DNA from: a phage
Strand: one strand, 5' to 3'
Sequence record: PZ049717.1
DNA length: 4,982 nucleotides
Numbering within the stretch: position 1 is the stretch's first letter; the number at the start of each line of letters is the position of its first letter. The translations under genes were made by a program, and so were the position numbers. Below, one piece after another: positions 1,918-4,872 of the stretch. The notes beneath the pieces were generated by a model. The model ran no database searches, was not told the origin of the DNA, and was given only the letters and a program-made list of their open reading frames with translations.

Positions 1918-2565
1918 ATGTCGCTACGCTCGCAGATACTGGTCAACAAACAAGCACTGCCCACGGCAGAACAGGCGCTGCCCGGCCGCTCGACGGCGAT
2001 GCCGGTCCCGCCGGCGCACCATGTGAACGGCAATCCGCTGCAGCCACCATTCCCGGCCGGCCTGCAACAGGCGGTCTTCGGCATGGGCTGTTTCTGGGGC
2101 GCGGAACGTCGCTTCTGGGAACAACCCGGGGTATGGACGACGGCGGTGGGCTACGCCGGAGGGATTACGCCGAACCCGACCTACGACGAAGTGTGCTCCG
2201 GACTCACCGGTCACACCGAAGCGGTGCTGGTGGTGTTCGACCCCAAGGTGATCGATTACGAAACCTTGCTGCGCATCTTCTGGGAGGCACACAACCCGAC
2301 CCAGGGTATGCGTCAGGGCAACGATGTGGGCAGTCAGTACCGGTCGGCGATCTACTGCATGGACGCGCAGCAGCGCAGCGCGGCCGAAGCCAGTCGTGAG
2401 CGCTTTCAGCAGCGCCTGAGCCATGCGGGCTTTGCGCAGATCACTACCGAGATTGCCGACGCCCCGCCTTTCTACTATGCGGAGGCGTACCACCAGCAGT
2501 ATCTGGCGAAGAATCCAGGAGGTTATTGCGGACTCGGCGGGACCGGCGTCTGCATGCCGGATTGA
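1918..2565 (+). CDS. msrA: peptide methionine sulfoxide reductase MsrA (215 aa)
   Basis: Translation from the ATG at 1918 begins [24 protein letters not shown], closely resembling the E. coli MsrA N-terminus (MSLFDKKHLVSPADALPGR...) as I recall it. It contains the MsrA active-site signature [13 protein letters not shown] (catalytic Cys codon at about nt 2090-2092) and conserved [39 protein letters not shown] and [19 protein letters not shown] blocks. Stop TGA at 2563-2565. The ORF-track start at 1828 adds 30 non-conserved residues and lacks an RBS. Confidence 0.95.
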
Positions 2566-2640
2566 TGCGGTGCAGTCGAGCTAATGCTGCCCTTCGCCAG
2601 GCGGCCCTGCTGCTTGGCAAACGGCGGACTTGGCAGAAAG

Positions 2641-2662
2641 AAAAAACCCCGCCGAAGCGGGG
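2641..2662 (-). terminator. Rho-independent terminator read on the - strand (6-bp GC stem, UUCG tetraloop, U6 tail); possibly weakly bidirectional
   Basis: The + strand reads AAAAAA-CCCCGC-CGAA-GCGGGG. The reverse complement is CCCCGC-TTCG-GCGGGG-TTTTTTCTTTCT, a GC-rich perfect 6-bp stem with a TTCG loop followed by a T-tract. On the + strand the same hairpin sits ~80 nt after the msrA stop but is followed by CTCTGCAG, a poor U-tract. Confidence 0.65.
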
Positions 2663-2904
2663 CTCTGCAGACTGAATCCTGACATCCTTGATCGCGCGCC
2701 GTCCTGGCACCGCTCCCTGTGTGGTCCGTGTTGTTTGATCGCGCTTCCTGCGCCACATTCCTGATGCGAAAGATTACTGCCAGGCCTTGTGAGCCAGTAG
2801 TAGCCATTTTACATCACGCTTTGTAGCCTTTTCCTACACCGCGTCATCCATGATGCAGGGCTATAAGTCCAGGCTTACATTGCGCGAGTTTTATGACCTG
2901 AGGC

Positions 2905-2964
2905 CCGGCTTAATCGTTCCGCGTCATGGCCAAATAATTTCATATTGCCTTTAGATTAAGCCGG
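2905..2964. repeat. perfect 11-bp inverted repeat (CCGGCTTAATC ... GATTAAGCCGG) enclosing a 38-bp AT-rich core
   Basis: Left arm 2905-2915 is CCGGCTTAATC; right arm 2954-2964 is GATTAAGCCGG, its exact reverse complement. The intervening 2916-2953 is AT-rich (..CCAAATAATTTCATATTGCC..). It lies 8 nt from the acyl-CoA dehydrogenase stop (2972-2974). Confidence 0.6.
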
Positions 2965-2971
2965 CTCGACC

Positions 2972-4750
2972 TCAAAACTGTGCGGCATCCAGCAGGTAGA
3001 GCGACTCGCTGCCGGCCTTGACTGACGCCGTAAGCGAGTGGATGCGCGGCAACATCCGGGCAAAGTAGAAACGCGCCGTGCCCAGTTTGCTCTGATAGAA
3101 ATCGCCCTCGCCCTGCTTCGCCAATGCCACCGCTGCCATGCGCGCCCACATGTAGGCGTACGCGGTGTAGCCGAACACGTGCAGGTACTCGACCGAAGCG
3201 GCGCCGATCTCGTTCGGATTGGCCTTGGCCTGATCGATCACCCAGGCGGTCAGCTCGTCCAGATTGTCCAGCGCAGCCTTGAGGGGCTCGGTGAACTCGC
3301 GCAGATCCGCACCGGCACTGGCGATGAATGCGCGGATCTCATCGACGAACGCCTGATACATGGTGCCGCCGCTGCCGACAATCTTGCGTCCGACCAGATC
3401 CAGCGCCTGGATGCCGTTGGTGCCTTCGTAGATCTGGGTAATACGGCAATCGCGCACCAGTTGCTCCTGGCCCCATTCGCGAATGAAGCCGTGGCCGCCG
3501 AACACCTGCTGACCGTGCACAGTGGTTTCCAATCCCATGTCGGTGAGGAAGGCCTTGGCCACCGGCGTCAGCAGCGCAACTTGCGCCTCGGCCCGCTGCC
3601 GTGCCGCTTCGTCATCGCTGAACTTGGCGATATCGAGCTGCAGCGCGACGTAGCTGGAAAACGCACGCCCACCTTCGTTCAAGGCCTTCATGGTCAGCAG
3701 CATGCGCCGTACATCGGGATGCACGATGATGGGATCGGCGGCCTTGTCCTGCGCCACCGGGCCAGTCGGGGCACGGCTCTGGATGCGCTCGCGAGCGTAC
3801 TCGATGGCGCTCTGGTAGGAACGCTCGCCAGTGGCCAAGCCCTGGATACCGACGCCCAGACGCTCGTAGTTCATCATGGTGAACATCGCCGCCAGACCCT
3901 TGTTGGGTTCGCCGACCATCCAGCCGGTAGCGCCATCGAAGTTCATCACGCAGGTGGCGGAGGCCTGGATACCCATCTTGTGTTCGATCGATCCGCAGGA
4001 CAGCGAGTTGCGCTCGCCCAGCGAGCCGTCGTCGTTGACCAGAACCTTGGGCACCAGGAACAGGGAGATGCCGTGCGAACCGGCCGGCGCATCCGGCAGC
4101 TTGGCCAGTACCAGATGGATGATGTTGTCGGTCAGGTCGTGCTCGCCACCCGTGATGAAGATCTTGGTGCCACTGACCTTGTAGGAGCCATCGGCCTGCG
4201 GCTCGGCCTTGGTGCGGATGATGCCCAGATCGGTACCGGCATGCGGCTCGGTCAGGCACATGGAACCGGACCAGACGCCGGCGTACATGTTCGGCAGGTA
4301 CTTCTGCTTAAGCTCTTCGCTGGCATGGGCGTAGATCGACAAGCAGGCGCCGGACGTCAGCATCGGATACAGACCGAACGCCAGGCTGGCGGAGTTCATC
4401 ATTTCCTCCACCTGCGCCGAGATGACCTTGGGCATGCCCATGCCACCGAATGCCGGGTCACCACCGACACCCACCCAGCCACCTTCAGCGTACAGCTGAT
4501 AGGCCTCGCGATAGCCGGCCGGTGTCGACACCGCACCGTCGTCCCAGCGGCAACCCTCTTCGTCACCACTGCGATTGAGCGGGGCGATGCTGTTGGCGGT
4601 GATCTTGCCGGCCTCTTCGAGGATCGCGTCGGCGGTTTCCGCGTCGACCACCTCGGCCAGGGCTGGCAGCGCCTGCCAGAGCTTCGGCGCATCGAAGACT
4701 TCATTCAGGACAAAACGCATGTCGCGCAGCGGCGCTTGGTAGTCAGCCAT
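2972..4750 (-). CDS. large acyl-CoA dehydrogenase (~592 aa; long-type ACAD with C-terminal extension, FadE/DmdC-like family)
   Basis: Long - strand ORF with high GC3 bias. Preferred start is the ATG at 4750-4748, giving MADYQAPLRDMRFVLNEVFD..., preceded by GAGGAA (4758-4763) 7 nt upstream; the ORF-track start at 4786 adds 12 residues with no RBS. Contains the ACAD catalytic-base region ITQIYEGTNGIQ (YEGT motif), FAD/substrate-fold blocks (CLTEPHAGTDLG, GTKIFITGGEHD, FGGHGF) and a ~130-aa C-terminal extension typical of the ~600-aa ACAD subfamily. Stop TGA at 2974-2972. Confidence 0.92.
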   Translation of the reverse strand: MADYQAPLRDMRFVLNEVFDAPKLWQALPALAEVVDAETADAILEEAGKITANSIAPLNRSGDEEGCRWDDGAVSTPAGYREAYQLYAEGGWVGVGGDPAFGGMGMPKVISAQVEEMMNSASLAFGLYPMLTSGACLSIYAHASEELKQKYLPNMYAGVWSGSMCLTEPHAGTDLGIIRTKAEPQADGSYKVSGTKIFITGGEHDLTDNIIHLVLAKLPDAPAGSHGISLFLVPKVLVNDDGSLGERNSLSCGSIEHKMGIQASATCVMNFDGATGWMVGEPNKGLAAMFTMMNYERLGVGIQGLATGERSYQSAIEYARERIQSRAPTGPVAQDKAADPIIVHPDVRRMLLTMKALNEGGRAFSSYVALQLDIAKFSDDEAARQRAEAQVALLTPVAKAFLTDMGLETTVHGQQVFGGHGFIREWGQEQLVRDCRITQIYEGTNGIQALDLVGRKIVGSGGTMYQAFVDEIRAFIASAGADLREFTEPLKAALDNLDELTAWVIDQAKANPNEIGAASVEYLHVFGYTAYAYMWARMAAVALAKQGEGDFYQSKLGTARFYFARMLPRIHSLTASVKAGSESLYLLDAAQF

Positions 4751-4842: not shown

Positions 4843-4872
4843 TTATGACCAGATAGTTTTTTGCGGTCATAA
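4843..4872. promoter_or_regulatory. candidate operator: perfect 8-bp inverted repeat TTATGACC-N14-GGTCATAA upstream of the acyl-CoA dehydrogenase
   Basis: TTATGACC at 4843-4850 and GGTCATAA at 4865-4872 are exact reverse complements separated by 14 nt (AGATAGTTTTTTGC). The site is about 95-120 nt upstream of the ATG at 4750, in the 138-bp gap after the upstream gene's stop (4889-4891). Neither strand has a T-tract after the stem, so it is not a typical terminator. Confidence 0.3.

Follow-up and report, generated by a model that had tools for sequence, protein, structure and literature searches.

The small RNAs RsmY, RsmZ, RsmX and those of the CsrB type (Rfam clan CL00106) form one class of GacA-activated sponge RNAs with repeated GGA motifs. 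In Pseudomonas stutzeri A1501, RsmY has a Kd of 55 nM for RsmA, and mutation of the GGA motif abolishes the binding (Shang et al. 2021, PMC8249394). The same study found that rsmY expression is strongly lowered in a gacA mutant, that rsmY is expressed ~100-fold lower than rsmZ, and that biofilm formation in a strain lacking both rsmY and rsmZ is like that of the gacA mutant; rsmY was treated there as a separate RNA, with a deletion and complementation of its own (PMC8249394). The A1501 gene has been located in the intergenic region between PST_3857 and PST_3858, and its RNA is bound and stabilised by Hfq (PMC11332353). Supplementary Figure 3b of Shang et al. draws the locus as "PST3858 rsmY msrA" together with its promoter and RNA sequence (PMC8249394). 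Unlike rsmY, the rsmZ gene of A1501 lies elsewhere and adjoins rpoS. The GacA upstream activating sequence has been described as TGTAAG-N6-CTTACA, positioned at about -75 for P. aeruginosa rsmY (PMC4950607; also PMC4353343).

The stretch of DNA analysed here, 4,982 nucleotides in length and referred to below as the window, carries a spacer of 406 bp (2566-2971) between the stop codon of msrA (2563-2565) and that of an acyl-CoA dehydrogenase gene (2972-2974), as delimited by the open reading frame table. This spacer is almost certainly occupied by rsmY on the minus strand (~2764 to 2643) and by its promoter region (~2765-2880). When the entire window was scanned with the Rfam models, RsmY (RF00195) matched on the minus strand at 2762-2643 over model positions 1-121 of 121, with a score of 102 bits (E 1.7e-24; the gathering score is 57). 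An overlapping, weaker match to another family of clan CL00106 was outscored by RsmY and dropped, and the remaining three Rfam matches in the window are far under their thresholds. We infer a 5' end at 2764 ± 2 (the Rfam match begins at 2762) and take the terminator as the 3' end. The features of the region, in order of position, are as follows:

1918 to 2565, plus strand: msrA, peptide methionine sulfoxide reductase (Pfam PMSR, E 7e-63), convergent with rsmY
2566 to 2642, no strand: tail-to-tail spacer from the msrA stop to the rsmY terminator, with no recognisable feature
2633 to 2666, minus strand: Rho-independent rsmY terminator, with a G+C-rich stem (2666 to 2643), a UUCG loop and a T-rich tail (2642 to 2633)
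2643 to 2764, minus strand: rsmY small RNA gene, ~120 nt (Rfam RF00195; relatives; published A1501 sequence)
2677 to 2761, minus strand: seven GGA motifs of the RsmA/CsrA-binding type (read from the sequence and from folding)
2771 to 2776, minus strand: -10-like hexamer TAATCT, read from the sequence, 6-8 nt upstream of the predicted 5' end
2822 to 2838, minus strand: 17-nt remnant of a proximal GacA box, TGTAGGAAAAGGC-TACA, at the canonical Pseudomonas rsmY position
2862 to 2879, minus strand: distal GacA box TGTAAGCCTGGACTTATA, matching the consensus at 11/12 positions, its centre ~107 nt before the start of the RNA
2898 to 2975, minus strand: long hairpin starting from the dehydrogenase stop codon, an inverted repeat with no T-run after it
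2972 to 4750, minus strand: acyl-CoA dehydrogenase of the PST3858 type, 592 aa (Pfam Acyl-CoA_dh N, M, 1 and C domains)

A sequence-only reading of this stretch had described a gap of ~406 bp between convergent msrA and dehydrogenase genes, and the ends of the two reading frames (2565 and 2972, stops included) agree with that description. Its hand count of ~49% GC for part of the gap also holds; GC content is 48.8% in 2763-2971, 61.9% in 2566-2762 and 62.9% in the window's three coding regions. The AT-richer half of the spacer is the rsmY promoter region. The spacer is thus not a plain gap between convergent genes; it holds a third gene, co-directional with the dehydrogenase and converging on msrA. 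An independent small RNA had been one of several alternatives put forward, and the full-length match to RF00195 singles it out as the correct one; the covariance-model search that had been proposed as a check settled the identity as RsmY.

A small protein gene, or the remnant of a lost one, was another of these alternatives; P. aeruginosa carries a small gene, PA5019, between msrA and PA5020. For other pseudomonads this gene order stands, in that the gene after msrA is rlmJ (Pfam RsmJ, E 9e-102; 278-299 aa), which is on the minus strand, and the next is a plus-strand dehydrogenase. It does not carry over to the window, where the dehydrogenase is only ~40% identical to the rlmJ-linked PA5020-type enzyme and is not its ortholog. 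Short open reading frames of 32-44 aa are present in the spacer, but stops occur in all six frames, the longest spacer-confined frame (44 aa) is antisense to rsmY, and a tblastn search with three RlmJ proteins produced, at best, an alignment of 13 residues at E 0.39 in 2566-2971. A protein-coding gene or gene remnant as the content of the spacer therefore has a negligible probability.

The RNA encoded at 2764 to 2643 has the features of its family. Its GGA motifs lie at 2761-2759, 2748-2746, 2727-2725, 2716-2714, 2704-2702, 2687-2685 and 2679-2677, a count of 7 in 122 nt compared with 3.6 ± 1.5 in mononucleotide shuffles (P 0.035); related RsmY sequences carry 6-9. Two of the motifs are displayed in apical hairpin loops (AGGAA and AGGAC, in the hairpins GCGC-AGGAA-GCGC and GUGCC-AGGAC-GGCGC), with a probability of being unpaired of at least 0.98. 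Folded as a single sequence, the RNA has an unremarkable energy (z-score -0.93), as would be expected of a largely open RNA that works through exposed single-stranded motifs, and this lends no independent support. The RsmY family as modelled in RF00195 (P. fluorescens/protegens CHA0, P. aeruginosa) has the same three-hairpin layout, AGGA loop motifs and terminator, and shares with the window the stretch CAAGGAUGUCAGGA...CAGUCUGCA and a promoter architecture that depends on a GacA box. The hairpin of the rsmY terminator, a stem of 10 pairs of which 6 are G-C in the terminator scan, is the last hairpin of the Rfam RsmY model. Two terminator-like sites occur in 2400-3150, compared with 0.6 expected.

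Metagenome contigs were scanned with an RsmY pattern, yielding 120 loci; seven of these were false positives in coding sequence and were removed, leaving 113 genuine RsmY loci. The search pattern fixed the first hairpin and the CAGTCTGCA motif, and the conservation of these two elements in the resulting alignment is circular and uninformative. A structure alignment of 34 diverse RsmY sequences, thinned to no more than ~95% mutual likeness and analysed with RNAalifold, gives a consensus of 22 pairs, of which 5 are kept through changes on both sides. Most of these are in the middle hairpin, where C-G is replaced by U-A in 6 sequences, G-C by A-U in another 6, and C-G by U-A at a further pair in 2. 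In the terminator stem, one related sequence has a compensatory G-C to A-U change. The sequence-only reading had also suggested an alignment to look for compensatory changes, and the outcome is positive.

Four of the related loci (L123, L142, L187 and L190) match the window at 98.4-99.0% identity over 2.5-5 kb and at 97.3-98.0% in the spacer. The window and these four relatives have an RsmY RNA that is 100% identical, with a divergence among the five strains of 1-1.6% overall and 2-2.7% in the spacer. A more distant relative with the same arrangement, Pseudomonas sp. NPDC047963 (L026), has a dehydrogenase protein 92% identical to that of the window, a much more diverged spacer, and an RsmY that scores 74 bits. 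When the window RsmY was compared by blastn-short with loci anchored on msrA, only terminator fragments were recovered, and the covariance model was needed to find the RsmY of this relative. In NPDC047963 the counterpart of the segment between the msrA stop and the rsmY terminator is ~120 nt longer and poorly conserved. The msrA-anchored scan of contigs returned mostly distant phyla because MsrA is so conserved, and ~30 pseudomonad loci were usable.

A variant of RsmY was seen on another contig (L195, 6929-7065), in which ~12 nt are inserted behind the first hairpin. The GacA box of this variant has the sequence of the window lineage's proximal box, TGTAGGAAAAGGCTTACA, but is located 11 nt further upstream; the dehydrogenase was not found upstream of this variant.

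The closest described locus is that of A1501, in which the gene order dehydrogenase, rsmY, msrA is the same (PST_3857 is msrA). The sequence in the A1501 figure aligns with the window base for base, the distal box TGTAAGCCTGGACTTATA included, apart from letters dropped in machine reading, and the RNA part is identical save for such letters. The window has TAATCTTTC where the A1501 figure has TAATCTTCC, and the T-tail differs; as the figure sequence was machine-read, these differences are uncertain. The window would thus appear to belong to a different strain within the A1501 group. The element, its location and its function have thus already been described for A1501, a strain very close to that of the window. 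Novelty may lie in minor points alone, namely in the conservation of a second GacA box, in the hairpin that follows the dehydrogenase stop and in changes to both boxes that are specific to the strain.

The association of rsmY with the dehydrogenase extends well beyond these strains. Among the 104 RsmY loci with enough upstream sequence, an ortholog of the dehydrogenase (~81% protein identity) is directly upstream and on the same strand in 72, lies 0.9-9.6 kb away in 12, and is absent in 20. The window shares its upstream gene with most Pseudomonas RsmY loci. Adjoining msrA and rsmY occur only in the window lineage and in NPDC047963 among the loci compared, whereas in two typical loci (L092 and L129) the downstream gene is divergent and codes for a regulator whose N-terminus, judged by eye only, is of the LysR type. 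In two other Stutzerimonas species (L002 and L010), neither RsmY nor the window-type dehydrogenase is found within 4 kb of msrA. In the window lineage, the dehydrogenase and rsmY have as a unit become linked to dipA-msrA, and the junction with msrA is lineage-specific. A literature search for rsmY together with msrA returned nothing relevant. The dehydrogenase sequence, queried for exact identity, matched no record.

An alternative, close to the first of the two implications drawn in the sequence-only reading, is one in which the region is only a long 3' untranslated region of the dehydrogenase mRNA, read through to the terminator at 2666-2633, with no independent gene. The strong minus-strand terminator that had been placed ~310 nt past the dehydrogenase stop is real, with a stem (2666 to 2643) that begins 306 nt beyond the stop, and it is on the same strand as the dehydrogenase. 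However, this terminator is the 3' end of rsmY rather than of a structured, ~310-nt untranslated region. The Rfam match is full length and starts at model position 1, rsmY occurs without the dehydrogenase upstream in the 20 loci mentioned above, and the -10 hexamer and GacA boxes at family-typical distances favour a promoter of its own over a 5' end formed by processing of the dehydrogenase mRNA, as in a small RNA derived from a 3' untranslated region. Further, the A1501 ortholog is gacA-dependent and has been handled as a separate RNA by deletion and complementation (PMC8249394). We consider it highly improbable that the region is an untranslated region and nothing else.

Some read-through from the dehydrogenase is nevertheless plausible, and it could coexist with an independent rsmY gene; it cannot replace that gene. 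The distance from the dehydrogenase stop to the RNA 5' end is 84-87 nt in 66 of the 72 loci with a directly adjacent dehydrogenase, and 207 nt in the window and its four close relatives. In the typical Pseudomonas loci, the GacA box and promoter fill these 84-87 nt (e.g., 5507-5595 in L081) and leave no room for a dehydrogenase terminator, so that read-through into rsmY is plausible and the dehydrogenase probably does read through into rsmY at these 66 loci. In the window, the hairpin that follows the dehydrogenase stop codon lacks a T-run, which likewise makes some read-through plausible. The idea of a 3' untranslated region may therefore hold as a minor additional transcript, though not as the explanation of the spacer.

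The extra ~120 bp of the window lineage consists of the distal GacA box and the hairpin at 2898-2975. The hairpin has perfect inner arms of 11 bp (2964 to 2954 and 2915 to 2905) and a 7-bp outer stem, with a fold energy of -28.2 kcal/mol (z-score -1.68). A hairpin with different arms is present at the same place in NPDC047963 (4800-4880), around a conserved core, GAAATTAWTTGGCCAT. The possibility that the window hairpin is a dispersed repeat was rejected, as no other copies are present in the 1.57 Mb of sequence compared. Its role may be that of a terminator, of an insulator or of a binding site for a protein.

On the opposite strand, the terminator scan found no T-run terminator belonging to msrA before the rsmY hairpin, and read-through antisense to RsmY is therefore possible. 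When the hairpin of the rsmY terminator is read on the plus strand, an A-run comes before it and the sequence after it is not T-rich. The next terminator-like site on the plus strand, at 2709-2725, is antisense inside rsmY. The ends of both the msrA and the dehydrogenase transcripts are predicted ones. Upstream of msrA, a terminator-like hairpin at 1818-1876 (arms 1818-1828 and 1851-1863, T-run CTTTTTG at 1870-1876) sits between the stop of a dipA-like GGDEF-EAL gene (1815) and the msrA start (1918).

The AT-richer part of the spacer contains the elements expected of an rsmY promoter, contrary to the earlier view that no promoter was needed between these genes; rsmY has its own promoter-like -10 sequence and GacA upstream activating sequences. 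The -10-like hexamer TAATCT is kept in the four closest loci, and NPDC047963 has TAGTCT at the aligned position. No good -35 element is present upstream of rsmY, which is what an activator-dependent promoter would lead one to expect, and a simple sigma-70 scan found no full promoter there. The distal box is the sole match to TGTAAG-N6-CTTACA in the window at no more than 2 mismatches, with 0.04 expected by chance, and it is perfect in the four close relatives. The A1501 figure prints the stretch with the distal box in the line under 'Putative GacA binding site' (PMC8249394). The proximal palindrome, TGTAGGAAAAGGCTACA (2838 to 2822), is one base under the 18-nt format, the missing base being in the right half-site.

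Comparison with other loci identifies the two boxes. In ~100 other loci, a single GacA box is positioned at -74 to -76 from the GCGCAGGAAGCGC hairpin anchor. Each of the four close relatives has a pair of boxes: TGTAAGCCTGGACTTACA, which is perfect, at -118 and an 18-nt TGTAGGAAAAGGCTTACA at -77 from the same anchor. It follows that the window's proximal palindrome represents the canonical box minus one T, the distal box being additional. Two boxes are also present in NPDC047963, 42 bp apart, the proximal one perfect (TGTAAGTGAATGCTTACA) and the distal one at the equivalent place; since its spacer is much diverged, the two-box layout is conserved across real sequence divergence. The window lineage thus keeps two GacA boxes 41-42 bp apart, whereas other Pseudomonas rsmY promoters show one. 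A search of the literature on two GacA boxes found nothing specific at the level of titles and abstracts.

Both boxes are altered in the window strain. Six differences are private to the window in the 406-bp spacer, and two of them fall in the GacA boxes. In the distal box, CTTACA of the four closest relatives is changed to CTTATA (position 2863), and in the proximal box a 1-nt deletion changes CTTACA to CTACA and breaks the N6 spacing. The A1501 figure has the CTTATA of the distal box and is without the deletion in the proximal box, the window being one T shorter there, with the reservation that the exact sequence of a machine-read figure is uncertain. Based on these changes, GacA control in the window strain could be weaker than in its relatives.

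Taken further, lesions in both boxes might leave the rsmY of this strain weakly expressed or no longer coupled to GacA. Nearly all related loci keep an 18-nt box, and the low expression of A1501 rsmY relative to rsmZ (PMC8249394) points in the same direction. However, with 6-10 differences in all, two of them at the 24 specified box positions would be no more than mildly unexpected (estimated P ~0.05-0.1), and A1501 has the same CTTATA according to its figure, with rsmY still gacA-dependent there (PMC8249394). The RNA and the -10 hexamer are intact, and the deletion, being in a TT run, could be a sequencing error. A weakly expressed or uncoupled rsmY is unlikely. It is conceivable, if doubtful, that in the window lineage an extension of ~120 bp has given the rsmY promoter an additional GacA box that is functional, placed four helical turns upstream of the canonical box, as well as a hairpin insulating rsmY from dehydrogenase read-through, and that the lesions of this strain in both boxes may weaken GacA control.

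By analogy with the near-identical A1501 locus, the gene would be expected to depend on gacA, its RNA to bind RsmA with a Kd of ~55 nM and to be bound and stabilised by Hfq, and its product to have a role in biofilm formation. In the mechanism that we propose, phosphorylated GacA would bind one or both of the palindromic upstream activating sequences and switch on a promoter with a -10 element and a weak -35. Transcription would stop at the intrinsic terminator (2666-2633), giving a non-coding RNA of ~120 nt that belongs to the RsmY/RsmZ (CsrB-like) class. The GGA motifs presented in hairpin loops and single-stranded stretches would then bind dimers of RsmA, a member of the CsrA family, and RsmA titrated in this way would come off its target mRNAs, relieving their repression, as for pslA and sadC in A1501.

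For the annotation of this DNA, it follows that the spacer is not an anomaly and that its terminator is part of rsmY. This gene is a central output of the Gac/Rsm switch, through which biofilm formation is controlled, and nitrogenase activity influenced, in the closely related strain A1501. For specialists in the Gac/Rsm system, the small points of interest are that the pairing of the dehydrogenase with rsmY is widely conserved, that the msrA junction is specific to a lineage and that this lineage has kept a pair of GacA boxes.

At the other end of the dehydrogenase gene, an AT-richer stretch contains a palindrome, TTATGACC-N14-GGTCATAA (4843-4872), ~95-120 nt upstream of the start codon (4750), which may be an operator.
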